Shown here in pieces: positions 5,046 through 64,000 of a DNA stretch of 64,000 nt. Position 1 is the stretch's first letter, and each line of letters opens with the position of its first letter. This DNA is from Candidatus Sulfomarinibacteraceae bacterium. GTDB lineage: Bacteria > Acidobacteriota > Thermoanaerobaculia > Thermoanaerobaculales > Sulfomarinibacteraceae. Both the position numbers and the translations under genes were made by a program. The notes beneath the pieces were generated by a model, which saw only the letters and a list, made by a program, of their open reading frames with translations, ran no database searches and was not told where the DNA came from. Location: assembly GCA_963733915.1 (NCBI GenBank), contig CAVTEP010000001.1, positions 671,710 through 735,709 on the forward strand, read 5' to 3'.

Positions 5046-5106
5046 CACCCACCCAACCGAAGAAACGCAAAGTCGCAAAGGCGCAACGACGCAAAGACGC
5101 AAAGGG
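5046..5106. repeat. E2: half element - C-rich clamp (cacccacccaacc) followed by tandem CGCAAAG-type units
   Basis: cacccacccaacc (5046-5058), then aaacgcaaagtcgcaaaggcgcaacgacgcaaagacgcaaaggg (5063-5106). No clear G-rich or complementary partner was seen. Lies in a convergent gap. Confidence 0.6.
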
Positions 5107-17946: not shown

Positions 17947-18990
17947 ATGAAAAAAGCCCTGATCACCGGCATTACCGGCCAGGACGGCTCGTATCTCGCG
18001 GAGTTGCTGCTCGCCAAGGAATACGAGGTCCACGGTCTGGTCCGGCGCTCCTCGACCTTCAACCGCAGCCGCATCGACCACCTGAGGAAGGCGTCTCTCG
18101 GAGACCGCCACGTACGTCTCCACTATGGCGATCTCGGCGACGCCGAGTCGCTGACGACCGTGCTGCGACTGGTGAGCCCGGACGAGATTTACAACCTCGC
18201 CGCCCAGTCCCACGTCGGCATCTCGTTTTCGATGCCCACCTATACCGGCGACGTTTCCGGTCTCGGAGCCGTGCGACTGCTCGAGGCTGTGCGACAGGTC
18301 GCACCCGAGGCACGGTTTTACCAGGCGTCGTCGTCCGAGCTCTTTGGCAAAGCGAAAGAGGTGCCGCAGAACGAGTCGACGTCCTTCCACCCGCGCTCAC
18401 CGTATGCGGTGGCCAAACTCTACAGCTTCTGGGCTGCCGTCAACTACCGAGAGGCCCACGGGTTGTTTGCAGCCAACGGGATCCTTTTCAACCACGAGTC
18501 GCCTCGGCGTGGAGAAAATTTCGTGACCCGCAAGATCACCCGCGCGGTGGCTGAGATCGCGGGCGGTCAGCGAGACCGGGTGTCCCTCGGAAATCTCGAC
18601 GCCCGCCGCGACTGGGGTTTTGCCGGCGACTTCGTTGATGCGATGTGGCGAATCGTGCAGACGGACGAACCGGACGACTGGGTCGTCGGTACAGGCGAGG
18701 AACACTCGGTACGCGAATTCTGCGAGCACGCCTTCGCCCACGTCGGCATTGAATTGGAGTGGGCAGGTAGCGGGATCGACGAGGTGGGCCGGGACCGTTC
18801 GACCGGCGCCACGCGGGTGGTGGTGAACTCGCGGTACTTCCGGCCGGCAGAGGTCGATCGATTGCTGTCGGATGCCGCAAAGGCGCGCCGCGAGCTTGGT
18901 TGGGAGCCGAAGGTCGGATTTGAGGAGCTGGTACGGATGATGGTTGACGCCGACCTCGAAGCGGTCGGCGCGACCACGCTAGAACGTTAG
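17947..18990 (+). CDS. gmd: GDP-mannose 4,6-dehydratase
   Basis: ORF track 17911..18990; ATG at 17947 gives [22 protein letters not shown]. Also SSELFGK, YAVAKLY and [17 protein letters not shown]. The last residues TTLER* are encoded in the left arm of E6. Confidence 0.93.
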
Positions 18991-19106
18991 AACGTTGGAA
19001 CGTCACACGTTAGAACGATTTCAAGTTGGACGGCCGGGTCTCCGCCGGACGTGCTCCGGTTGGGTTGGCCGAACGTGTTAACGTTTTAGCGTTGAACGTT
19101 TTAACG
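18979..19106. repeat. E6: STR-armed hairpin, AACGTT-type arms
   Basis: Left arm ctagaacgttagaacgttggaacgtcacacgttagaacg (18979-19017). The GC-rich core includes ggttgggttgg. Right arm gaacgtgttaacgttttagcgttgaacgttttaacg (19071-19106). The gmd stop lies in the left arm. Confidence 0.8.
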
Positions 19107-22796: not shown

Positions 22797-22912
22797 CGTT
22801 AGAACGTTTGGACGTTAGAACGTTAGAACGTTCCCGACCTCGCCAGTCATTGAAGATCTCGGGGTGGATGGGTGGGAAACGTTCTAACGTTCCAACGTGT
22901 AACGTTCGAACG
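22797..22912. repeat. E8: STR-armed GC-clamped hairpin, AACGTT-type arms, immediately after a canonical terminator
   Basis: Left arm cgttagaacgtttggacgttagaacgttagaacgtt (22797-22832). Core cccgacctcgcc..loop..ggggtggatgggtggg (22861-22876). Right arm aaacgttctaacgttccaacgtgtaacgttcgaacg (22877-22912). Confidence 0.88.
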
Positions 22913-22954: not shown

Positions 22955-23473
22955 ATGACCGATCGCGTCGGACCGGGTAACCTGCCGATTCTGGCCGTGC
23001 TGGGGCCATCCGATGCGTCGCCAAATGAATACGCGGTCGCGGAACGGGTCGGAGCGGCGGCTGCTCGTTCAGGATGGGTGGTACTTACCGGCGGAGGGTC
23101 GGGCGTCATGGAGGCCGCGAGCTGCGGCGCCGTCGAGGCGGGTGGCCTCACGGTGGGGATTCTCCCGACCGCGGTCTCCGGCAACGGCTACCCGAACCCC
23201 TGGGTGAGAATTCCGATCTACACGGGCGCCGGTAGTGCCCGAAATGCGTTCAACGTGCTGTCGGCATGCCTGTGCATCGCTATCGGCGGCGGCCCCGGCA
23301 CCTTGTCCGAGATCGCGCTGGCCCTCAAACACGGCATCCCCGTGTGGTGCTGGCAAAGCTGGGCTCTCACGCCGCCCCTCGGCTCCGACCGTCCTCTCCC
23401 CAGAAACTTCGGCACCGCAGACGAGCTTCTCGCTGCTCTGGAGATCGAGTTGCAGAAACGTTTGAACGTTTGA
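22955..23473 (+). CDS. TIGR00725/LOG-like (lysine decarboxylase-like fold) family protein
   Basis: ORF track 22808..23473. The ATG at 22955 is preceded by GGGAGG. Motifs: VVLTGGGSGVMEAASCGAVEAGG, GILP, IAIGGGPGTLSEIALAL. The upstream part of the ORF runs through repeat E8, and the C-terminal QKRLNV* lies in E9. Confidence 0.72.
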   Translation: MTDRVGPGNLPILAVLGPSDASPNEYAVAERVGAAAARSGWVVLTGGGSGVMEAASCGAVEAGGLTVGILPTAVSGNGYPNPWVRIPIYTGAGSARNAFNVLSACLCIAIGGGPGTLSEIALALKHGIPVWCWQSWALTPPLGSDRPLPRNFGTADELLAALEIELQKRLNV

Positions 23474-23493
23474 ACGTTCAACGTTTTAACGTT
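23456..23493. repeat. E9: AACGTT-unit quasi-palindromic repeat without GC clamp, in a convergent gap
   Basis: aaacgtttgaacgtttgaacgttcaacgttttaacgtt. It contains the stop codon of the TIGR00725-like gene. Confidence 0.8.
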
Positions 23494-25592: not shown

Positions 25593-25642
25593 CGATACCC
25601 CCCTCGCGTTGAGATCTGACGCCGGGAGTGTAGCAATTCCTT

Positions 25643-26005
25643 CGTTAGAACGTTAAAACGTTAGAACGTTAAAACGTTCGGCTCATCTGGAGATTCGTGG
25701 GATCGAGGCGTGAAGGTTTCGGTCGGCAAGGGCAGCGACAGGAGCGGCGACAGAATGCAAAGGCAGGGTCGGTCAGCAGCGGCCGGAGCAGCGACCATGG
25801 ATCGTGACGACGGTCGCTGTGGACTGCCCCTGACGCGGTCTCCAACCGCTGCCGCCGCCACTGGCGCCGTACCGTTCCAACGGACGCGACCAATAGCTTC
25901 TTTTGAGGGGGGTTGGGCGATCCCCTTTTCTCCTTTTCTCCTTTTCCGCTCTGCCTCTTGAGGGTGGGCGGAACGTTCTAACGTTCCAACGTTTTAACGT
26001 TCCAA
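25643..26005 (+). repeat. E10: composite nested element (~363 bp): AACGTT arm, GC-rich inner module, GGAGAAAA-type (as cttttcc) arm, GGGTGGGCGG clamp, inverted AACGTT arm
   Basis: Left arm cgttagaacgttaaaacgttagaacgttaaaacgttcg (25643-25680). Module ~25731-25859. ccttttctccttttctccttttcc (25923-25946). gagggtgggcgg (25959-25970). Right arm gaacgttctaacgttccaacgttttaacgttcc (25971-26003). Colinear homologue of E14. Confidence 0.85.
25731..25859 (+). repeat. GC-rich inner module, copy A (candidate structured RNA or MITE core)
   Basis: ggcagcgaca..aaggcagggtcggtcagcagcggccgg..gtcgctgtggactgcccctgacgcggtctccaaccgctgcc. It shares the blocks GGCAGGGTC(N4)AGCAGCGGCCG and CTGTGGACTGCCCCTGACGCGGYCTCCA with copies B-D. 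Confidence 0.75.
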
Positions 26006-26007
26006 TG

Positions 26008-26709
26008 TCAGTTCAGTGTGATGACCGCGTCGCCGACACCGACCGAGACCTCGACGCGGTGGGTGCCGTCGCCGGACCACGAGGCCGCATGGCTCACGAA
26101 ACCGCCGCTCGAGATCAACTCGCCGAGGACCGTGAGGCGGGCGTCGCCGACGCCACCGGCCGCCTCGGCCGACCTGTAGGCCGAGGCCGCGCCGAGGACC
26201 ACCGCCGTGCCGACGCCAAGGTCGACCACGACGTCACCATCGGCGGCGTCCACCTCGATATCGCCGACTCCAGAGTCGATTTCCACCCCTGCCGTGATAC
26301 CCCGGATTGCGATGTCCCCGACACCGTGGTCGAGCGTGAGGGCGATCTGCGGCGGCATGCCGATCGTCCATCGTTCCTCAAAACGCCGATCATCGTCCGC
26401 GGACGGGTGGATGCCGAGTACCAGGCGACCACCTTTGATGGAAGTCTCGAGGGACGCGGCTTCGACCTCCCGCTCGGCCTGCCGCTTGGACGAGAAGAAT
26501 CCGCCCCGTCTTGGTGTCAGAACCACCTCGATGGAGATCTCTTGAGCGCCCTCGACCGCGACGATGCTGACGTCACCGATGCCGCTATCGAGGTCGACGG
26601 AATCGATTCCGGCGAGCGGAAGGGTCTCGGACAAGGTGCGCGGACCGCCCGCGTCTGCGGGTAGGGCGAGAAGCAAGAGAACAGACAAAACGAGGACGGT
26701 TCTTTTCAT
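26008..26709 (-). CDS. Secreted DUF4097-like beta-strand repeat protein
   Basis: Signal peptide MKRTVLVLSVLLLLALPADA. Repeated G(V/I)GD(I/V)xI/V motifs: DSGIGDVSIV, HGVGDIAIRG, DSGVGDIEVD, VGVGDAVITL. Confidence 0.65.
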   Translation of the reverse strand: MKRTVLVLSVLLLLALPADAGGPRTLSETLPLAGIDSVDLDSGIGDVSIVAVEGAQEISIEVVLTPRRGGFFSSKRQAEREVEAASLETSIKGGRLVLGIHPSADDDRRFEERWTIGMPPQIALTLDHGVGDIAIRGITAGVEIDSGVGDIEVDAADGDVVVDLGVGTAVVLGAASAYRSAEAAGGVGDARLTVLGELISSGGFVSHAASWSGDGTHRVEVSVGVGDAVITLN

Positions 26710-42513: not shown

Positions 42514-42563
42514 CAACGTTCAAACGTTCAAACGTTCAAACGTTAAGACGTTATAACGTTAAA
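42514..42563. repeat. E16: tandem AACGTT-unit array (6 hexamers), direct-repeat form
   Basis: caacgttcaaacgttcaaacgttcaaacgttaagacgttataacgttaaa. It starts 1 nt after the DUF362 gene stop. Confidence 0.8.
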
Positions 42564-44118: not shown

Positions 44119-44121
44119 GCC

Positions 44122-44243
44122 CCATCCACCCACCCTTCCGCGAAAAGGAGAAAAGGAGAAAAGGAGAAAAGGAGAGGGGGAGAGGGAGCAGAGGCTGGGA
44201 AAGGGGAGGGTGGGTGGTCTCCTCTTCGCCTTTTCCCCTTTTC
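44122..44243. repeat. E17: element with interleaved order: C clamp, (GAAAAGGA)x4 arm, G clamp, complementary ccttttcc arm
   Basis: ccatccacccaccc (44122-44135). gaaaaggagaaaaggagaaaaggagaaaaggaga (44142-44175). ggggagggtgggtgg (44203-44217). tctcctcttcgccttttccccttttc (44218-44243). Confidence 0.8.
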
Positions 44244-44789: not shown

Positions 44790-45194
44790 AACGTGTGAAC
44801 GTTCAAACGTTAGTACGTTCCACCCGCCCACCCTCAGGAGGCAGAGGGGAAAAGTGGAAAAGGGGAAAAGGGGAAAAGGAGCCATCGCAGATTTCAATTT
44901 CGGATTTTCCGCCCAAATCTCCCCGAAGCTGTGGGACCCGTCCGATAAACCGTCGATCAGGGGCAGCGGCACGAACAGCGACAGCGGCTGGAGACCGCGT
45001 CAGGGGCAGTCCACAGCGACAACATTTTGAAAGACCGATTCGAACTGCACCGGTCGCTGCCGCGGTCGTTGCTCTCTAGCCCCGCCTCTGCGGTCTGTCG
45101 CTGTCCCTGACCGCCGTTGCAACGAATGGCACCAACGACTTTATGGGGGGAGGGTGGCCCCCTTTTCTCCTTTTCCCCTTTTCTCCTTTTCTCC
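44785..45194 (-). repeat. E18: composite element (~410 bp) in inverted orientation relative to E10/E14, with GGAAAAG / CTTTTCC arms flanking the inner module
   Basis: attagaacgtgtgaacgttcaaacgttagtacgtt (44785-44819). ccacccgcccaccc (44820-44833). (ggaaaag)n at 44848-44880. Module ~44960-45115. ggggggagggtgg (45145-45157). cccccttttctccttttccccttttctccttttctcc (45158-45194). Confidence 0.85.
44960..45115 (-). repeat. GC-rich inner module, copy D (reverse orientation)
   Basis: On the + strand: ggggcagcggc..ggctggagaccgcgtcaggggcagtccacagcgac..gctctctagccccgcctctgcggtctgtcgctgtccctgaccgcc. This is the reverse complement of the blocks conserved in copies A-C. Confidence 0.75.
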
Positions 45195-46238
45195 TCAGGC
45201 ACGCATGCTCTTCGCCGTGATCTCGATCGCTCGCGCGATGTCCTCATCGCTAATGTGATAGTGCGTCACCATCCGGATGCTGTCGCCCCCGAGGGGGTGA
45301 CAGAGCACGCCGTCGCCGGCGAGGCGTGAGGCAAGCGCTGCGGCGTCCAAATCTGAGCTTGGTGCCAGCGAAAAGAAGACGATGTTGGTTTCGACCGTGT
45401 CCGGGTCGAGGACCACGCCGGGGATCTCGGCCAGCCCGACGGCGAGCTCGTGCGCACGACGATTGTCCTCACCGAGCAGGGGCAGCACCTCCTCGAGCGC
45501 CACCAACCCGGCGGCGGCGATGACCCCGACCTGGCGCATGCCGCCACCGAACATCTTGCGGATGCGGCGCGCCTCGATGATGGCGTCGGCGTCGCCGACG
45601 AGGAGTGAACCGACCGGTGCGCCGAGCCCCTTGGAAAGACAGAACATGATTGTGTCGCAGCCGGCGCCGAGCTCGGCCGCCGAGACGCCGAGCGCCGCCG
45701 CCGCGTTGTGGATTCGGGCCCCGTCGAGGTGAACCGGAAGGTGGTGACGACGGGCAACGCCGATAAGCTCGTTCATCCGAGCCGGCGGTGTGACGTGACC
45801 GCCGGCGAGGTTGTGGCTGTTTTCGAGGACCACCAGCGAAGTCGGCGTCCGGTATCCGGTCCGAGGCTGAATCGCTCTCTCCAACTGCTCCGGGCTGATG
45901 ATTCCGTCGTCGGTCGGGATCGGACGTGGGAGAGCCCCGGAAAGGGCCGCCATCGCGCCCATCTCGAAGTTGAACACGTGGGCGCCCGCCTCTCCGACCA
46001 CCTCTGATCCGGGGTGGGTGTGGAGGTGGATGGCGATTTGATTGCCCATCGTGCCGGTCGGTACGAAGACTGCCGCCTCTCGCCCCATGAGCTCCGCAGC
46101 CCGCTCCTCAAGGCGGTTGACGGTCGGATCCTCGCCGTAGACATCGTCACCGACCTCGGCCCTCGACATGGCCCGGCGCATGCTGTCCGTGGGATGTGTT
46201 ACCGTGTCGGATCGCAAGTCGATCAGGGGTTTGTTCAT
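45195..46238 (-). CDS. ltaE: Low-specificity L-threonine aldolase (PLP-dependent)
   Basis: [19 protein letters not shown]...[16 protein letters not shown]...[13 protein letters not shown]...[12 protein letters not shown]. Confidence 0.9.
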
Positions 46239-52739: not shown

Positions 52740-53951
52740 ATGCAGGGCACCGTACTCGACATCACCACCGAAACGCGACACCTGGACGGAGTCGTACGTC
52801 CCGCGCTGATCATCTGCGCGGTTCTCGCGGTCGTCGGCATCGGCGGTTCTCTTCTGCTCGCCAACGGTACCGAGGGTGGGATGGACTACCTGCTCGAGAC
52901 CTACCTGGTGAGCTTCGCCTTCTTCCTCAGCATCTCCCTCGGGGCGCTCTTCTTCGTCCTCCTCCAGCACTGCACGCGGGCCGGCTGGAGCGTCGTCGTC
53001 CGGCGGGTGGCCGAGGCGATGGCGGCAAACGTCTGGCTGATGGCAATCCTCGCAATCCCGGTGGTTTTCGGAATGGACCATCTCTACCATTGGGCGGAGG
53101 CCGGGGCCGCAGCCCACGACCCGCTCTTGGCCGCCAAGGTGGGATTTCTCAACCCGACCTTCTTCCTGATCCGGCTCGTCATCTACTTCGCGATCTGGGG
53201 CGTGATGGCGAGCTTCCTGCACCGTACGTCGGTGGCTCAGGATGCCAGCGGCGACCCCTCGCTGACCTTGCGCATGGAACGCCTGAGCGCGCCGGGAATG
53301 GTGCTCTTCGCCCTCAGCCTCAATTTCGCCGCCTTCGATCTCTTGATGTCGCTCGACCCACACTGGTTTTCGACCATTTTCGGGGTCTACTACTTCGCCT
53401 CCTCGGTGGTGGTCTTTCTGGCGGTGATGCCGAAAATTCTGTATGCGCTGCAGGCCCGCGGAGTCCTCAAGAACGCGGTGACCGTCGAGCACTATCACGA
53501 TGTGGGCAAGCTGCTCTTCGGCTTCATCGTCTTCTGGGCGTACATCGCCTTCTCCCAGTACATGCTCATCTGGTACGGGAATATCCCGGAAGAGACCGAG
53601 TGGTTCCTCAAACGGCAGACCGGCGGCTGGACGACGGTGGGCCTGATCCTGATTTTCGGGCACTTCCTGGTCCCGTTTCTGCTCCTCGTCTCGCGGAAGA
53701 TCAAACGCCGCCCGCTCCTGCTCGCCGTTACCGGTGGCTACGTGGCGGTGATGTGCTGGATCGACATCTACTGGCTGGTGATCCCCGAGTTCAGCCCAGG
53801 CGTCGCCCGCTTCGGTCTCCTCGACGTGCTCTGCCTTTTGGGCATGAACGGCGTCTATTCGGCGGCCGTCATCCTCCGTCTCAGAAAACACTCGGTGGTC
53901 GCGGAAAAAGACCCACGGCTCGAAGAGTCGCTGGTATTCGAGAACGCCTGA
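52740..53951 (+). CDS. actF: Alternative complex III subunit ActF (second NrfD-like membrane subunit)
   Basis: 403 aa with about 10 TM segments, in the conserved position after actE. LIWYGNIPEETEWF motif. Confidence 0.82.
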   Translation: MQGTVLDITTETRHLDGVVRPALIICAVLAVVGIGGSLLLANGTEGGMDYLLETYLVSFAFFLSISLGALFFVLLQHCTRAGWSVVVRRVAEAMAANVWLMAILAIPVVFGMDHLYHWAEAGAAAHDPLLAAKVGFLNPTFFLIRLVIYFAIWGVMASFLHRTSVAQDASGDPSLTLRMERLSAPGMVLFALSLNFAAFDLLMSLDPHWFSTIFGVYYFASSVVVFLAVMPKILYALQARGVLKNAVTVEHYHDVGKLLFGFIVFWAYIAFSQYMLIWYGNIPEETEWFLKRQTGGWTTVGLILIFGHFLVPFLLLVSRKIKRRPLLLAVTGGYVAVMCWIDIYWLVIPEFSPGVARFGLLDVLCLLGMNGVYSAAVILRLRKHSVVAEKDPRLEESLVFENA

Positions 53952-53954
53952 AAT

Positions 53955-54059
53955 GAATTCTCAATTCTCAATTCTCAATTTTGAATTACCCATTCTCACC
54001 GGAAAAATCGGGGAGGATGGAAGGGAATTGAGAACTGAGAATTCAAAACTGAGAACTGG
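53955..54059. repeat. E19: STR-armed GC-clamped hairpin, GAATTCT/CAATTCT-type arms, directly after actF
   Basis: Left arm gaattctcaattctcaattctcaattttgaatt (53955-53987). Core acccattctcacc..ggaaaaatc..ggggaggatggaaggg. Right arm aattgagaactgagaattcaaaactgagaactgg (54026-54059). Confidence 0.88.
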
Positions 54060-54067
54060 AGTTTCCG

Positions 54068-54349
54068 TTGCGTTATGACGATCCAAACGTCGCTGCCTCG
54101 GCCGTGGTCGGCATTATTTCGGCAATCCTCCTGTTCGTGATCATCGTCGTCCTCCAGGCTTATTTCTATGAGGCGGAGCAGAACGAGCTCGAAAAAAAGG
54201 TCTACACCCAGCCATATCAGGCCCTGCAGCAGCTCGACGCCAACCAGATCGAGCTTCTCAACAGTTATGGCTGGGTGAGCGAGGCGGACGGCGTTGTCCA
54301 CGTGCCGATCGAACGCGCGATGGAGCTTATCGCGGCCGAACAGAGATGA
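54068..54349 (+). CDS. Small single-TM membrane protein (hypothetical; occupies an ActG-like position after actF)
   Basis: TTG start, 93 aa. TM segment AASAVVGIISAILLFVIIVVLQAYF, then a soluble tail ...LLNSYGWVSEADGVVHVPIERAMELI. It is bracketed by repeat elements E19 and E20. The ActG-like label rests on position only. Confidence 0.45.
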   Translation: MRYDDPNVAASAVVGIISAILLFVIIVVLQAYFYEAEQNELEKKVYTQPYQALQQLDANQIELLNSYGWVSEADGVVHVPIERAMELIAAEQR

Positions 54350-54382
54350 TTTGCCGATATCAAAGGCGATGGGTTCGGCCGC

Positions 54383-54532
54383 GAATTCTGAATTAGGAAT
54401 TGGGAACTCCCATCCGCCCCCCCAGTGAAATCGTCCTGTTCAGGGGGTGGGAGGGCGGCATTCCTAATTCCTCATTCCTAATTCCTAACTCCTGACTCCT
54501 CTTTGCTCATTCTTCCCCCTAATTCCTCATCC
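54383..54532. repeat. E20: STR-armed GC-clamped hairpin, GAATTAGG-type arms (right arm longer than left)
   Basis: Left arm gaattctgaattaggaattgggaact (54383-54408). Core cccatccgccccccc..loop..gggggtgggagggcgg (54443-54458). Right arm cattcctaattcctcattcctaattcctaactcctgactcc (54459-54499), plus ctaattcctcatcc (54519-54532). Confidence 0.85.
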
Positions 54533-54795
54533 TTGAGATTCTTCTCAGGTCGGTACGTCTGTTCCAGAACGGGATGGCTTGAACCAGCGCCGGCGACGTC
54601 CTACCTCGATGAATATTGGTATCGATCTTGCGTCTACCAATGCGGGGGCGGCTGCTCACCCGGGAACGGGCGGGAGGGGAGACCGGGTATCGAGCAAAAC
54701 CAGCCAGCCCACCACGGATCGGAAACGGAGGGTCGATCGTGACTGGCAGGGGCGGAAACACCACCGGCATCGGGCCTTCGAGAACGGAGTGAGCC

Positions 54796-56043
54796 ATGGC
54801 GCTCGTCGGCCGTCTCGAAGATTTGCCGCTCGCCGAGATCTTCCAGGTGCTGTCGTTGTTCCGGAAGTCGGGCAAGCTGACCCTCAGCCGAGGTGAAACC
54901 ACCGGTGTGTTCCTGTTCAACGCCGGCAAGGTTTTTCATGCCAGCAATGGGTTTTCGGCGCCTTCGGTCGGAGAGTTTCTGGTCAGCAGGAAGCTGATCA
55001 CCGAGGAGACCCTCAACGCGGCCCTCGCCACCCAACGGCTGTCGGACGAGCGCAAAAAGCTCGGTGCGATCCTCGTCGAGATGGGCGCCATCTCGCACGA
55101 TGCGCTGCAGAAGGTGCTGCGCGACCAGATGCAGGACATCGCCTTCGAGTTCTTGCGCTGGGATTCCGGGTTTTTCAACTTCAAGGCCATTGAGGGCCAC
55201 GTTGACCCGGACAAGATATTCGAAGACGACGATGCGAAGCTCACCGAGGTGGTCAATGTCGATCCGTTTGTCCTCGACCTCCTGACCAAGGTGGACGAGG
55301 TGGGCGGCACCGGAACGGTGCGGCCGGTGCCGCGAAAGGGGGCGGACGGCCCCTTCGACGACGCCACCGTGAGCACGATCCGTGAGCTCCTCGATTACAT
55401 CGTGGAGCCGGGAAACAGCGTGTACCGGAGTGATCCAGCCGATGTCGTGACCGAATGGCCGTCAGACCTCGCCGAGTTGAGAAAGCTGATGACCGAGATC
55501 CAGACTCGACCCAACGCCACGCTGGGCGAGATCGCACTCCTGATCCTACGTTACGCGACCCGGGTCGTGAATCGTGGAGCGCTGTTCGGTGTGTCGTCAG
55601 AGGGGATCTCGGGGATCGGTCAGTTCGGGATCGGCAGGGGCGACGATCTGGTGCCGAAGGTCGACAGGCGGGTTCGTCAGATTCATATTCCCACCACCGA
55701 GCCGTCGGTATTCACCAGTGTCATCGAACGGAAGACCACCTACCACGGACGTCTCGACAGGTGTCCCTGGAACAACTACCTGGTCGATCAGCTCGGTGGA
55801 ACGGTGCCGCCGGAGGTCGTCGTAACGCCGATCGTCGTCAAGGGTGCGGTCTCGGCGGTGTTCTACGGCGACAACCTGCCCGGAGGTCATCCGATCACGT
55901 CGATCCATGGCCTCGAGCTGCTGATGATCGAGGCCGGGCTGGCGATCGAGCGAAACGTGCTTGCAGAAAAACTGAGTTGGCTTCAACAGACGCTGGCGGC
56001 GATCACCGGCGGCAGCGACGATGATCGGGGCGAGGGCGAATAA
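54796..56043 (+). CDS. DUF4388 domain-containing protein
   Basis: The N-terminus MALVGRLEDLPLAEIFQVLSLFRKSGKLTLSRGETTGVFLFNAGKVFHA is the DUF4388 signature. Confidence 0.75.
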   Translation: MALVGRLEDLPLAEIFQVLSLFRKSGKLTLSRGETTGVFLFNAGKVFHASNGFSAPSVGEFLVSRKLITEETLNAALATQRLSDERKKLGAILVEMGAISHDALQKVLRDQMQDIAFEFLRWDSGFFNFKAIEGHVDPDKIFEDDDAKLTEVVNVDPFVLDLLTKVDEVGGTGTVRPVPRKGADGPFDDATVSTIRELLDYIVEPGNSVYRSDPADVVTEWPSDLAELRKLMTEIQTRPNATLGEIALLILRYATRVVNRGALFGVSSEGISGIGQFGIGRGDDLVPKVDRRVRQIHIPTTEPSVFTSVIERKTTYHGRLDRCPWNNYLVDQLGGTVPPEVVVTPIVVKGAVSAVFYGDNLPGGHPITSIHGLELLMIEAGLAIERNVLAEKLSWLQQTLAAITGGSDDDRGEGE

Positions 56044-56069
56044 CCACGAGGCCGGTCATACCTGAGTGT

Positions 56070-56185
56070 CAATTAGGAATTAGGAATGAGGAATTAGGAA
56101 TGCCGCCCACCTCCCCTGGTTATCAACCGAGAGAGGGAGGTTGGAGGGGAATTCCTAATTCCTAATTCCTAATTCCTAAATTCTC
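56070..56185. repeat. E21: STR-armed GC-clamped hairpin, GAATTAGG-type arms; best-paired example
   Basis: Left arm caattaggaattaggaatgaggaattaggaatg (56070-56102). ccgcccacctcccc (56103-56116). Loop tggttatcaaccgagaga. gggaggttggagggg (56135-56149). Right arm aattcctaattcctaattcctaattcctaaattctc (56150-56185). The reverse complement of the left arm matches the right arm with 2-3 mismatches by eye. Confidence 0.9.
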
Positions 56186-56188
56186 GAT

Positions 56189-57403
56189 TTATTCGTGCCG
56201 GAGTGCGTCGATCGGATCGAGAGCTGCGGCCTTGGCGGCCGGATAGGTGCCGAAGAAGATTCCGACCAGCGCGGCGAAACCGAAACCGAGCGCGACCGCC
56301 CACAGGGGCACGTGGGCCGGCGGGAAGCCCGGGATCGCCTTGGCGCCGAGGATCCCGAGGCCCCAGCCGGCGAGGACTCCGAGCAGCCCGCCGAAGAGTG
56401 AAATCGTCACCGCCTCGATGAGGAATTGCACGAGGATGTCGGATCTTCGGGCGCCAACGGCCTTTCGGACCCCGATTTCGCGGGTCCGCTCGGTCACCGA
56501 TACCAGCATGATATTCATGATGCCGATACCGCCGACAAGCAGGGCGATGCTGACGACCCCGCCGACCACGCTGGTCAGGGTGCCGAGGATGGAGCCGGTG
56601 GTCGAGAGAATCTCCTCCTGCAGGATGACCCGGAAGTCGTCGCGCTTGCCTTCAGGGATTCGGTGTCTGACCCGCAAAACCTCGGTGATCTGGTCCTTTG
56701 CGAGATCGACCTGCTCGACGCTCTTGGCCTGGAAGTCGAGAATCAGCCTCTTGAACGACTCGATTCCGTAGAGATCGCGGGCGGTCGTGATCGGGATCAT
56801 GATGAGATCGTCCCGGCTCTGACCGAAAATCTCGCCCTTCTCCTCCATGACCCCGACTACCGTGAAGCTCGACTGACCGATGATCAGCTCGGTGCCGAGC
56901 GGCTCGTCACCAAGCTCGAGCTCGGTGACGATGTCACGGCCGATGATGCAGACCCGGGTACGCCGGTCGAGGTCGAGGGGAGAAAAAAACCGCCCGCGGT
57001 CGACCCAGTGGTTGTTGACCTCCTGGTGCCATGAGCCGACCCCGAGGAGGGTCGTCGAGTGGTTGCGGTCACGGTATTTCAGCCGTTCGCCGCGGAAGAA
57101 GATCGGGTTGAAGTACTCGATGGCCGTCGCCGCCTCGACGACGGCGAGGCCGTCGTCGTAGCTGAGGCTGATCTCTCGGCCGGCAAGGTCGGGGTCGTTG
57201 GGGTCCTCGCGCCACTGGACCCGGATGTAGGTGGCGCCGACGCCCTCGAGCTGGGTGGCGATCACGTAATCGAGCCCCTGCACGATCGACACCACCGCGA
57301 TCACCGCGCCGACGCCGATGATGATGCCGAGCATCGTCAGCAGCGATCGCATCTTGTTCGCGCGGATGGCCTGGAGGGCGATCAGGAGGTTGTCCCAGAT
57401 CAC
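56189..57403 (-). CDS. macB: ABC transporter permease, MacB/FtsX family
   Basis: [39 protein letters not shown], a large periplasmic domain, and C-terminal FtsX TM segments ([19 protein letters not shown]). Confidence 0.85.
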
Positions 57404-60183: not shown

Positions 60184-60230
60184 GGTTTACCCCCTCGTTC
60201 GTATTTGTACTTCGCTGCGGGGATTATATT

Positions 60231-60279
60231 CCGGAAATCCGCATCCGAATCCGGAATCGGATTCGGATACGGATTTCGG
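60231..60279. repeat. E22: near-perfect hairpin of AAATCCG/CCGAATC-type units in a divergent promoter gap
   Basis: ccggaaatccgcatccgaatccg (60231-60253), loop gaat, cggattcggatacggatttcgg (60258-60279). One mismatch by eye. Confidence 0.85.
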
Positions 60280-60301
60280 GATTTGCTACCCTGCATCCCG
60301 C

Positions 60302-63972: not shown

Positions 63973-64000
63973 TTCAATTTCGGATTTCGAATTTCGGATT
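63970..64000. repeat. E24: start of another element (TTTCGGA/AAATCCG-type arm), truncated by the window end
   Basis: tagttcaatttcggatttcgaatttcggatt. It begins at the stop codon of the last gene and is the reverse complement of the AAATCCG unit used in E13 and E15. Confidence 0.6.

Follow-up and report, generated by a model that had tools for sequence, protein, structure and literature searches.

The focal element lies between two convergent genes of an acidobacterial genome, within a 64-kb stretch of DNA that was analysed as a whole and is here called the window. On one side is the gene of a DUF4388 protein and, facing it, that of a MacB/FtsX-type ABC permease; between their stop codons an array (AATTAGG)x4.4, a GC-rich core and an array (AATTCCT)x4.3 follow one another at 56071-56184, as delimited from the sequence and with TRF (Table 1). 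This convergent gene pair has a single orthologue among the related loci (L095); a genome scan with the DUF4388 protein as the query found no relative, and a plasmid blastn search gave no match. An inverted-repeat search aligns arms of 32 nt (56073-56104 and 56148-56179; gap 43 nt) that are 94% complementary with two mismatches, bearing out the two to three mismatches over 33 nt counted by eye in an earlier, sequence-only reading, and the core at 56102-56149 is itself a C-rich/G-rich hairpin. The predicted folds of 56060-56195 reach -67.2 kcal/mol for RNA of the plus strand (z = -7.2), -63.4 kcal/mol for RNA of the minus strand (z = -7.2) and -40.3 kcal/mol for DNA (z = -8.4), with 0 of 200 shuffles as good in each case. 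What comes after the GC-rich stem is AATTCCTAATTCC, which is not a U-tract (at least five T in 8 nt), and an intrinsic-terminator consensus scan gave no match at the focal element. Against Rfam 15 the whole window had no match at gathering thresholds, and at permissive thresholds 53800-56400 returned only weak matches, to generic hairpins of microRNA precursors (E = 0.08-0.9).

Table 1. Focal element, its neighbouring genes, and related elements and arrays in the window.
Feature	Positions	Strand	Description
Upstream gene, DUF4388 protein	54796..56043	+	Pfam PF14332, E = 1e-23; stop codon 28 nt before left arm
Focal left arm	56071..56101	+	(AATTAGG)x4.4; one variant unit AATGAGG, inner AATG; TRF period 7, 91% matches
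Core stem, C-rich 5' half (CCGCCCACCTCCCC)	56103..56116	+	pairs with 56135-56149 in minimum-energy folds
Core, small inner stem and loop	56117..56134	+	predicted fold
Core stem, G-rich 3' half (GGGAGGTTGGAGGGG), the G-box	56135..56149	+	from the sequence
Focal right arm	56150..56184	+	(AATTCCT)x4.3 (56150-56179), then AAATTC; TRF period 7, 100% matches
Convergent gene, MacB/FtsX-type ABC permease	56189..57403	-	Pfam PF12704 and PF02687; stop codon 5 nt past right arm
Site 1, AATTCTC / GAGAAYT arms	53956..54058	+	between ACIII-operon gene 52740-53951 and 93-aa membrane-protein gene 54068-54349
41-codon ORF spanning entire site-1 hairpin	53953..54078	+	starts 1 nt after upstream stop; TGA overlaps next gene's start
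Site 2, GAATTAGG-type / ATTCCTA arms	54383..54530	+	3' of 93-aa gene, 5' of sigma-54-like promoter
Paired element GAGTTTT / AACTCAA	13300..13417		between M23 peptidase gene and secA; 0.89 complementary
Paired element AATTCTC / AATTGAA	17813..17916		begins 5 nt past IMPDH stop codon; 0.87 complementary
Paired 8-mer element ACGTTAGA / AACGTTTT	18976..19106		overlaps GDP-mannose dehydratase stop codon; 0.86 complementary
Paired element TGAGTTT / AACTAAA	20869..20985		3' of formiminotransferase-cyclodeaminase gene; 0.88 complementary
Paired 8-mer element CGTTAGAA / AACGTTCT	22797..22912		3' of OmpA-family gene; 0.85 complementary
Long composite element	25643..26005		AACGTT-type arms, ~290-nt core with two G-boxes and a CCTTTTCT array inside it
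Composite element	32976..33346		C-box and GATGCTG-type array, long core (same family), G-box and (AAATCCG)x4.3
Paralogue of 25643-26005	34854..35226		80% column identity to 25630-26015
(GAATTAG)x7.7 / (ATTCCGA)x4.4, 141-nt core	36233..36458		divergent spacer; 0.81 complementary, one base per unit mismatched
C-box, (GAAAAGGA)x4.2, G-box, CCTTTTCC array	44120..44243		3' of glycogen synthase gene; 0.87 complementary
Composite element	44792..45195		AACGT-type array, C-box, (AGGGGAAA)x4.4, reversed long core, G-box, (CCTTTTCT)x4.4; terminates at stop codon of minus-strand aldolase gene
Coreless palindrome, AAATCCG-type units	60230..60281		24-nt arms, 92% complementary, 4-nt gap
Paired element CAATTCT / GAATTAA	62370..62472		0.79 complementary
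Unpaired array (AACGTTCA)x5.8	42515..42560	+	fills co-directional spacer
Further unpaired arrays	175-211, 5065-5104, 23457-23493, 28958-28993, 63977-64000		
AATTAGG arrays	36233, 54383/54460, 56071		
AATTCTC arrays	17813, 53956, 62370		
GAGTTTT arrays	13304, 20876		
AACGTTNN arrays	175, 18976, 22797, 23457, 25643/25972, 34854/35205, 42515		
AAATCCG arrays	33317, 60230		
ACGCAAAG/CACAAAG arrays	5065, 28958		

The focal copy, a 115-bp sequence, is one of many hairpin-forming repeats of a family found just 3' of stop codons: the window has about 16 similar loci, and relatives (Thermoanaerobaculia, Sulfomarinibacteraceae-like) have dozens more. Their anatomy is that of inverted arrays of four to five AT-rich heptamers, sometimes octamers, around a C-rich-then-G-rich stem (GGGTGGGTGG-like). 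The building block is a module of one box and one array, and modules also occur singly or chained, as at 4230-4470 of L075; the long cores constitute a dispersed family with four diverged copies in the window at 66-75% identity (80% for the closest pair), one of them reversed. A period of 7 dominates in the acidobacterial loci (307 of about 495 arrays, as against 49, 40 and 55 with periods of 6, 8 and 9), and the related loci use 74 canonical units of 7-8 nt, the commonest of which are nearly all AT-rich. The preferred set differs genome by genome, and many different units coexist within one genome, some of them lacking AATT (CCTTTTC, ACGCAAAG, GATACTC, CACCAAG). All the units listed in the sequence-only reading are present in the window, though the array it gave as GAATTAGG is really built of the heptamer AATTAGG, the additional G being the one next to it. 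Its view of the units as unrelated holds for AACGTTNN, GAAAAGGA and ACGCAAAG but not for the A(A/G/T)TT-type heptamers, which are one to three substitutions apart; intermediates such as AATTTTG, AATTCGG, AATTATG and AATTCAG occur in relatives. Single arrays also adjoin promoter-like sequences (25643, 33317, 36233). Unpaired arrays are common both here and in Planctomycetota loci, in three of which (L043, L061, L076) TAACTGA-type arrays lie directly upstream of start codons. GGA motifs (CsrA-type) were seen on inspection in only some of the units.

The same reading took the right arm of each locus to be the reverse complement of the left. This is the case for 10 of 12 adjacent pairs (79-97%), but single arrays and unlike-armed loci exist as well, for example CCTTTTCT adjoining AACGTTCT at 25924-26002 and 35140-35226 (0.41-0.45 complementary). 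Median complementarity of the array pairs in the window is 0.86 within a locus versus 0.48 when re-paired across loci (p = 6e-5), and for 132 distinct pairs from the window and 160 related loci the values are 0.83 versus 0.63 (p = 3e-23). An arm complementarity that is non-random and maintained while the unit changes is supported. Two mechanisms had been offered for it, selection on base pairing itself and intra-element templating. Under either of them particular nested partners should agree, which was not observed; neither proposal is supported. When the order of units was shuffled in one arm, complementarity was not lowered (mean z = 0.00 over 67 informative elements): the arms match no better than would two random arrays of the same unit. 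Variant units are mirrored between the arms at p <= 0.05 in 3 of the 67 elements, which is the chance rate; in one element that does have mirrored variants, L105, they are exactly those that hold a reading frame open. With the partner arm slid by a whole unit (+/-7 columns), pairing stayed the same (88.4, 86.2 and 86.0%), as did the covariation score (0.261, 0.239 and 0.230), the nested register being no better than a shift of one unit, and the register picked by RNAalifold was displaced by two units. The types of mismatch show strand symmetry, G.T and A.C having similar frequencies. In two counts for the transcribed strand (27 versus 36 and 41 versus 32) there is no excess of G.U over A.C, unlike in an RNA helix whose pairs are individually tuned; an RNA-specific wobble reading was rejected, the similar frequencies lending no support to pair-level RNA selection. 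The two arms correspond as entire arrays; the match is one of repeat units, not of individual base pairs. Together with the one-arm switches, the unequal copy numbers and the unlike-armed or element-free close relatives described below, this speaks against templating of one arm on the other, and against a purifying selection that would strictly maintain pairing at all loci.

Orthologues of the site-1 element were traced through about 60 genomes. Across lineages five fully matched unit types occupy this site (AATTCTC, AATTTTG, AGTTTTG, AATTCGG, AATTAGG) with mostly complementary arms, and the frame of five units is retained among lineages that differ by about 50% at four-fold sites. In an alignment of 25 sequences the arm helix carries 59 double-sided changes versus 26.8 +/- 4.6 after shuffling, with none of 500 shuffles reaching 59. 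The covariation is register-independent. The T positions of A(A/G)TT are invariant across the 25 orthologues, and arms of the same allele class show a divergence of 0.02-0.06, compared with 0.19-0.32 at four-fold sites of the neighbouring gene. Outgroups have a spacer of only 11-23 nt, from which we infer that the element was gained at this site. Further, an element-free allele inside the clade (L084), a remnant (L099) and unlike-armed alleles (L008, L090, L108, L115) indicate that the hairpin is dispensable at least here. Site 1 is inside a conserved operon, directly 5' of the ribosome-binding site of the next gene, and is usually translatable; the ORF through it has 41-43 codons, and the part of the peptide encoded by the core is not conserved. 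This context would suit a relay or an attenuator better than a plain terminator. Counting of independent AATT/AGTT switches on the gene tree was abandoned because recombination decouples the class of element from the phylogeny of the flanking genes.

Near-identical strains differ by swaps of the whole spacer or of half an element. L083, L086 and L090 combine a common right arm with three different left-arm-plus-core modules. In L007 and L113 the coding flanks are identical and the spacer is different, the same unit position differing in all 5+5 units (AGTT/AACT versus AATT/AATT); core, stop codon and start codon differ as well, as they would after replacement of the allele rather than repair. 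Some array-wide switches are confined to one arm (right AAAT x5 in L101; left ATTT x5 in L002 and L083; right AACT x4 in L010), and near-identical relatives have arms with unequal numbers of units and also differ from one another in unit number (2 units in L006 versus 4 in L114; 2, 3 and 4 in L086, L089 and L090). Avoidance of AATT (restriction) sites as the cause of the AATT-to-AGTT switch was rejected, AATT arrays being kept at site 2 of L005. Also discarded were DGR-like adenine mutagenesis, as inspection of the sequences finds one A per unit altered, and to G only, and insertion of a hairpin into an older direct array, as neighbouring arrays compared in the same orientation resemble each other little (median similarity 0.62; just 2% reach 0.85 or more).

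The copies begin a few bases past stop codons, in co-directional and convergent spacers. Paired elements occupy 51 of 227 plus-plus, 20 of 131 convergent, 1 of 53 minus-minus and 2 of 103 divergent spacers (74 elements, 514 spacers), and the distance from stop codon to arm has a median of 4 nt and is at most 10 nt in 67%, figures that come from crude gene calls (ORF length and GC3) and are inflated by many orthologues of two sites. Four consecutive unrelated housekeeping genes (IMPDH, GDP-mannose dehydratase, FTCD and OmpA-like) each have an element at their 3' end. Given their place just past stop codons, the elements would be transcribed at mRNA 3' ends. The C-rich half of the core comes first in 43 of 45 scorable elements and the G-rich half in two (p = 6e-11), or 15 versus 2 once the two orthologous sites are left out; this polarity is identical on both strands by construction, and the C-rich-then-G-rich order also occurs in many classical terminator stems. 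The G-boxes contain three or four G-runs. Among the stem-plus-T-run hits listed by the consensus scan, only one falls at an annotated gene end in 44-64 kb, and it consists of a G-box with the CCTTTTC array that belongs to it. A sigma-54-type promoter lies downstream of site 2. Most loci, including the focal one, have stop codons in all three frames of both strands; such stops were rejected as the general purpose of the arrays, in that AATTCTC, AATTCGG, AAATCCG, GAAAAGGA and ACGCAAAG contain no stop codon.

Among known systems, the closest parallel comes from the GC-rich genomes of Xanthomonas, whose inverted GGGAATC heptamer repeats have mostly about four units and are about 90% intergenic (Rehm et al. 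2015, PLoS One, PMC4692102). Their mean distance from the upstream ORF is 28 nt, few of them separate divergent genes, and at 70-75 of about 185 sites they form convergent inverted pairs capable of a stem-loop; sister species have them between the same genes with varying length and sequence. An over-representation of heptamers in bacterial spacers has been noted since 2007 (PMC4692102). The elements described here likewise belong to a GC-rich host genome and have a tandem 7-nt unit in about four copies (4.4 and 4.3 in the focal one), an intergenic position near the end of the upstream ORF, with 2 of 74 paired elements in divergent spacers, and convergent arrays able to form a stem-loop. Unlike the single G-rich unit of Xanthomonas, whose own G-runs give G4 potential, they use many AT-rich units as well as octamers, with the G-runs in a separate box, and the Xanthomonas study describes no joint switching of both arms at orthologous sites, no exchange of modules and no translated copy. 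Among the cyanobacterial STRR heptamer repeats, which are arranged in tandem in spacers, one genome reportedly has several types of unit. The TAACTGA repeats lie 5' of genes (MacGregor 2015, PMC4679880). Both share with our elements the tandem heptanucleotides in spacers near the ends or starts of ORFs, but they are for the most part direct arrays that lack a GC-rich hairpin at the core, and they belong to other phyla. The feature is best read as a variant of the inverted heptamer repeats of Xanthomonas and cyanobacteria.

Other palindromic elements offer partial parallels. REP/BIME sequences and REPINs are said to be abundant extragenic palindromes at gene ends whose 3' hairpins can stabilise the upstream mRNA; REPs have a conserved sequence of 20-40 nt (GTAG or CGTC tag) and depend on the RAYT (IS200/IS605-like) transposase. 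Abundance at gene ends, inverted pairs, compound forms and dispersed families recur here, but tandem repeats make up the arms, and both the arms and the short cores vary from locus to locus, with only the C-rich/G-rich composition in common; no RAYT was found among the ORFs of the window scanned with Pfam. MITEs have terminal inverted repeats, a target-site duplication and near-identical copies. Inverted arms are present here; at site 1, comparison with the element-free outgroups and with L084 brought no such duplication to light, and paralogy (66-80%) is seen only in the long-core family. Intrinsic terminators, including bidirectional ones, share the GC-rich C-then-G stem, the AT-rich flanks and the location after stop codons and between convergent genes, whereas our elements have no U-tract, lengthen the stem to about 45-50 bp through tandem-array flanks of 30 nt, and in some copies sit inside operons. 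Integron attC sites have R''/R' core sites (RYYYAAC / GTTRRRY) and extrahelical bases, and go with gene cassettes and an integrase. Site-specific sequence with complementary halves at gene 3' ends is common to both, but no GTTRRRY/RYYYAAC pair is found at the ends of our elements, no intI was seen, and the flanks are syntenic housekeeping genes. The Rickettsia palindromic elements are reported to lie inside real protein genes with a conserved sequence and an open frame that is kept; the site-1 palindrome is similarly read through, but its ORF is brief and merely links two genes, and the peptide is unconserved where the core encodes it.

Taken together, we tentatively favor, with somewhat less than even confidence, a family of intergenic palindromic repeats of Thermoanaerobaculia (Acidobacteriota) acting as transcript-end hairpins, exchanged as modules, with slippage-homogenised arrays. 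The hairpin of 45-50 bp, with its GC-rich top and AU-rich base, would most likely be a transcript-end structure, which might be a factor-assisted terminator that needs no U-tract, might block 3' exonucleases, or might do both. The whole palindromic module would be the unit of origin and of exchange between strains, replication slippage would homogenise each array internally, and combinations unable to zip up would be lost over time; the match between the arms would then derive neither from compensation of individual base pairs nor from copying of one arm off the other. This proposal has to accommodate a 3' arm that is AAUUCCU-like, or A-rich elsewhere, and lacks a U-tract, such that canonical intrinsic termination is not expected, as well as the lack of G.U excess, the dispensable hairpin and relay- or attenuator-like intra-operon setting of site 1, and the single arrays beside promoter-like sequences. 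An unlikely relative of it posits gene-end cassettes, box-plus-heptamer-array modules swapped between near-identical strains with boundaries exactly at stop and start codons, which, with array-wide concerted unit change on both arms and translatability at coupled gene junctions, would amount to a terminator or relay element that renews itself and has no recognisable transposase. Rather unlikely, though the stronger of these two contenders, are selfish, non-autonomous mobile or recombining DNAs (MITE- or REPIN-like) that have no host function, with a hairpin needed by the machinery that moves them and a position after stop codons reflecting tolerance or targeting of insertion. The dispersed long-core family with its reversed copy, the replacement of spacers and half-elements, the presence/absence polymorphism (L084, L099) and gain at site 1, the compound and chained modules, and the genome-specific unit sets all speak for such DNA; yet the ORFs scanned with Pfam hold no transposase, RAYT or integrase domain, site 1 compared with the element-free outgroups and L084 has no recognised target-site duplication, the short cores of same-armed elements are not alignable and so are not recent copies, and both the persistence of the five-unit frame and the slower evolution of the arms relative to four-fold sites count against it.

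The complementarity might instead be a property of DNA, with the elements serving as cruciforms, G-quadruplexes or binding arrays for an AT-preferring nucleoid protein. The strand-symmetric mismatches and core polarity, the predicted DNA hairpin of -40 kcal/mol, the G-runs of the G-boxes (the Xanthomonas heptamer repeats form G4 in vitro; PMC4692102) and the invariant T positions, a constraint beyond what pairing needs, agree with this; we nevertheless regard it as quite improbable, for the many units per genome, some without AATT, make a single sequence-specific binding protein unlikely, the close association with stop codons and the scarcity in divergent spacers speak for transcription or translation, and the conserved positions of site 1 can likewise be explained by its open reading frame. 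A neutral mutational by-product, in which slippage in AT-rich spacers, perhaps beside replication-stalling G-runs, yields arrays and inverted duplications that decay, appears very unlikely. It would account for the common unpaired arrays, the variable copy number among close relatives and the heptamer over-representation in many bacteria, for which polymerase slippage has been proposed (cited in PMC4692102), but not for a copy number fixed at five units over deep divergence at site 1, arms that evolve several-fold more slowly than four-fold sites, the strong bias in position relative to stop codons, the consistent core polarity, or at least five distinct matched unit types at one site. Homogenisation of the arms against each other by hairpin-primed repair, strand switching or quasipalindrome correction is disfavored still more. 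While the co-switching of both arms at an orthologous site, the 5+5 changed units of L007/L113 and the mirrored variants of L105 are what it would produce, the L007/L113 pair fits allele replacement and the L105 variants are frame-preserving; moreover, the absence of overall mirroring, the register result, the one-arm switches and the unequal arm copy numbers contradict it.

The comparative material from this lineage is unusually rich: across dozens of genomes the unit, the core and even whole modules of a single spacer change, while the architecture, the five-unit length and, at one site, an ORF persist. The comparison separates pairing, the homogenisation of repeats and coding constraint, three things that are usually confounded. 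A caution for covariation-based calls of RNA structure is that arms built of tandem repeats can show seemingly compensatory covariation in the absence of any pair-specific signal. If the elements are the terminators of a phylum whose genomes seem to have few canonical U-tract terminators, their recognition would improve the annotation of operons and 3' ends in metagenome-assembled genomes of Acidobacteriota.

The arms of these elements are complementary within a locus well beyond the focal element (56071–56184), as the sequence-only reading had claimed. The window, with a GC content of 63%, holds 36 arrays with 7- or 8-nt units and ~16 elements, paired or composite; adjacent array pairs show 79–97% complementarity in 10 of 12 cases, against a median of 0.48 when left and right arms are re-paired between loci (p = 6e-5 versus within-locus). 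Across the window and 160 related loci (L-numbers below) from other genomes and metagenome contigs, the median over 132 distinct adjacent pairs is 0.83, as opposed to 0.63 upon re-pairing (p = 3e-23), with complementarity of at least 0.85 in 41% versus 9%. The repeat spectrum comprises 307 arrays of period 7, as against 49, 40 and 55 of periods 6, 8 and 9. That reading had further taken the units of different loci to be unrelated and each locus to be paired: the units do differ, but A(A/G/T)TT-type heptamers are only 1–3 substitutions apart, and single arrays and unlike-armed neighbors occur besides the paired loci. The ACIII ActB-like protein of the window shares 75–76% identity with those of Ca. 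Sulfomarinibacter and other Thermoanaerobaculia metagenome-assembled genomes.

The focal element takes up the spacer that separates two convergent genes; an inverted-repeat search gives arms of 32 nt with 94% complementarity, and the core runs through CCGCCCACCTCCCC, a small inner stem-loop and then GGGAGGTTGGAGGGG. On folding, the 136-nt region forms a single long hairpin (RNA, + strand, -67.2 kcal/mol; RNA, - strand, -63.4; DNA, -40.3), with z-scores of -7.2 to -8.4 and equally good folds in 0 of 200 shuffles. Its left arm has a variant unit, AATGAGG, that is not mirrored in the right arm, where all units are alike. More generally, the elements are built from a module in which an array comes after a G-rich box (GGGTGGGTGG-like); seen from the opposite strand, the array comes first and a C-rich box second. 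Two such modules face to face make the hairpin. The C-rich half of the core precedes the G-rich half in 43 elements, versus 2 with the reverse order (p = 6e-11); this holds on both strands, with 15 C-first versus 2 once the two orthologous sites (site 1, below, and site 2) are removed. Single modules, or chains with differing heptamers, are also found. A long-core family has four diverged window copies (~250–300 nt, 66–80% identity, one reversed) inside larger composites, each GC-rich core, with CAGCGACAG-type motifs and internal palindromes, lying between arrays and G/C-boxes; outside the window it has one weak match, in L010. A conserved motif, GGCTCATCYGGRAWT.CGTG.GAT, which has no match in Rfam, adjoins AACGTT-type arrays in several genomes. 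Elsewhere in the window, a C-box, GAAAAGGA array, G-box and CCTTTTC array stand in succession, an arrangement compatible with either a pair of mutually exclusive helices or a pseudoknot (box–box, array–array).

Coordinates of elements, arrays, genes and motifs (window positions unless a locus is named)
Feature	Position	Strand or remark
Focal left arm, (AATTAGG)x4.4	56071-56101	TRF
Focal right arm, (AATTCCT)x4.3	56150-56179	TRF
DUF4388 protein gene, flanking focal element	54796-56043	+
MacB-type ABC permease gene, convergent flank of focal element	56189-57403	-
Last large ACIII-operon gene, before site-1 spacer	52740-53951	
Conserved 93-aa membrane-protein gene, after site-1 spacer	54068-54349	
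41-43-codon ORF through entire site-1 hairpin	53953-54078	+; also orthologous spacers in L002-L117
Site 1, window element	53956-54058	
Site 2, window element	54383-54530	
AATTATG-only subclade	L020, L119, L124, L125, L127, L129, L132-L136, L143	site 1
L007/L113 compared regions	L007 17130-17830; L113 1-800	
Single or chained modules	L075 4230-4470; L012 5456-5598; 25900-26005, 35120-35226	
Long-core copies	25679-25971; 33057-33315; 34884-35204; 44957-45109	last reversed
GGCTCATCYGGRAWT.CGTG.GAT motif	25679-25700, 34884-34905; L005 ~8060, ~8400; L015 site 2	
C-box, array, G-box, array series	44120-44243	
Sigma-54 pattern, TGGTATCGATCTTGC	54617-54631	+
Second sigma-54 pattern match	30694-30708	-
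TGCTACACTCC	~25625-25636, 36218-36228	read on - strand
Planctomycetota arrays	L043 14776-14881, 16119-16233, 21432-21604; L061; L076; L049; L068	

Site 1 provided orthologous comparisons, its spacer being recovered from 24 genomes and ~60 metagenome contigs: it measures 11–23 nt in outgroups and carries the element in the ingroup. The unit varies by lineage (AATTCTC, AATTTTG, AGTTTTG, AATTCGG, AATTAGG or ATTTCGG), and in most lineages the two arms are reverse complements of each other. In the alignment of 25 distinct sequences the arms are nearly gap-free, with five units in all 25; the arm helix is 86.7% paired (80.5 ± 0.7 in shuffles), with 59 double-sided changes (26.8 ± 4.6) and a covariation score of 0.236 (0.146), none of which was reached in 500 shuffles, and the signal collapses when the partner is slid by 1–3 columns. 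Taken alone, these statistics look like classical compensatory evolution. However, when the partner is displaced by one full unit (±7 columns), pairing (88.4, 86.2 and 86.0%) and covariation (0.261, 0.239 and 0.230) stay the same; the RNAalifold consensus of the same alignment (A1) pairs the arms two units off the nested register. Shuffling unit order in one arm does not alter complementarity (mean z = 0.00, 67 informative elements), the three variable positions per unit are Watson–Crick paired in just 64% whatever the register, and the transcribed strand shows no G.U excess (27 or 41 G.U versus 36 or 32 A.C, in two counts). Further, whole arrays have switched in one arm only: the right arm in L101 (AAAT x5) and L010 (AACT x4), and the left in L002 and L083 (ATTT x5). 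Because of these slide, shuffle, mismatch and one-arm-switch results, we place the agreement of the arms at the level of arrays rather than nested partners, and therefore disfavor arm-to-arm templating and, in its pair-level form, selection on pairing, both raised by the sequence-only reading. Tandem-repeat arms thus yield a covariation-like signal in several registers, a pitfall for automated structure calls.

Site 1 also has an open reading frame, which opens with an ATG 1–3 nt past the upstream stop codon and closes with a TGA that overlaps the beginning of the 93-aa gene; in the focal element, by contrast, every frame of both strands is interrupted by stops. At site 1, no stop codon interrupts this frame in 25 of 35 distinct elements, compared with 2 of 70 cases for the two alternative frames. 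An open frame exists on the sense strand in 24 of 37 elements versus 9 of 37 on the antisense, with a baseline of ~30% at other loci. The units that depart from the pure repeat are precisely the ones that eliminate an in-frame stop, such as TTC or CTT for TTG at unit 2, or the mirrored AATGAGG/CATTCCT units in L105. This constraint accounts for the constant number of five units, the conservation of unit order and much of the slowness with which the arms evolve at site 1, and it suggests a relay of ribosomes through the element within the operon.

Over short divergences the elements change in several ways. Copy number in one arm differs between near-identical relatives (2 units in L006, 4 in L114; 2, 3 and 4 in L086, L089 and L090). 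L007 and L113 are identical over 150 nt of coding sequence upstream and have 2 differences in the 273-nt gene on the other side, and their spacers differ from the last codon through the start codon, with the stop and start codons as exact limits; the arms are homologous but differ in all 5+5 units (AGTT/AACT versus AATT/AATT), and the cores are unalignable. Among L083, L086/L089 and L090, at 2–3% divergence in the gene, a common right arm is joined to three different left-arm-plus-core modules, one of them (GGATGCT type) non-complementary. L084, inside the clade, is without the element, and L099 retains only a remnant. Element class is decoupled from the flanking-gene phylogeny, so alleles are being swapped as cassettes. 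The arms are highly stable among elements of a single allele class, with a divergence of 0.02–0.06 versus 0.19–0.32 at four-fold sites. One site-1 subclade carries only a left AATTATG-type array, followed by a different, well-conserved structured segment (GTGCCTGGCTCC...CGAACAAAG...GTGCCTGGCTCC), ~57 nt of which is present in L132 but missing in its close relative L131.

By crude gene calls (ORF/GC3) across all acidobacterial loci, and with figures inflated by orthologues of the two sites, 52 paired elements lie in co-directional and 20 in convergent spacers, with only 2 in the 103 divergent spacers; the median distance from stop codon to arm start is 4 nt. The window alone shows the same pattern, with an element after each of the IMPDH, GDP-mannose dehydratase, FTCD and OmpA-like genes. 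A consensus scan of gene ends across 44–64 kb found no canonical stem-plus-T-run terminator except a match of G-box plus CCTTTTC array, and the elements match no Rfam family in the window or the locus surroundings. As for promoters, TGGTATCGATCTTGC, ~165 nt upstream of the DUF4388 gene, fits the sigma-54 pattern TGGYAY-N5-TTGC; this motif is found at the same position in many related loci, preceded by a conserved GTnCC-N-GGGA-type stretch, and the window has a second match. The extended -10-like TGCTACACTCC adjoins repeat arrays directly upstream of two minus-strand start codons (OPT transporter and inositol monophosphatase), where the arrays may also serve as AT-rich promoter-upstream DNA.

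The nearest published parallel comes from Xanthomonas (PMC4692102), whose inverted GGGAATC heptamer repeats have ~4 units, lie 28 nt past the upstream ORF, form 70–75 convergent pairs and are seldom seen between divergent genes; no function is known for them. The cyanobacterial STRR and TAACTGA repeats (PMC4679880) are related phenomena, and TAACTGA-like arrays are also present in our Planctomycetota loci (Thermoguttaceae, Pirellulales). There, unpaired heptamer arrays occupy similar places: GATTAGR-type arrays after stop codons and before a small GC hairpin, and AAGGATG arrays, then TAACTGA/GAAAACT arrays, directly before start codons. The present elements differ in that a single genome has many unit types, the C/G-box core is separate and of fixed polarity, the arms of orthologous sites co-switch across whole arrays, cassettes are exchanged within ORF boundaries, and one copy is putatively translated.

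The most likely reading is that of a transcript-end hairpin, because anatomy, post-stop position, divergent depletion, C-then-G order and canonical-terminator scarcity agree. A simple RNA account is weakened by the lack of a U-tract, by alleles that are empty or have unlike arms, and by a mismatch spectrum that is symmetric. It is improbable that the elements act as a DNA-level structure or as an array bound by protein. A selfish MITE/REPIN-like element is a less probable candidate than the hairpin: the cassette exchange speaks for it, and against it the Pfam scan of window genes, all housekeeping, found no transposase or integrase domain. Slippage is a candidate source of the copy-number differences; that the elements are its neutral by-product is improbable, next to the fixed core polarity. 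Templated homogenization of arms is the hardest to credit, as variant units are unmirrored and arrays are switched in one arm only. As a transcript-end hairpin, the element would act as a U-tract-less terminator, probably dependent on a helper factor, and/or as an exonuclease barrier; its modules would arise and be exchanged as whole palindromes, with arrays individually homogenized by slippage and unlike arms slowly removed by selection for the stability of the stem as a whole.
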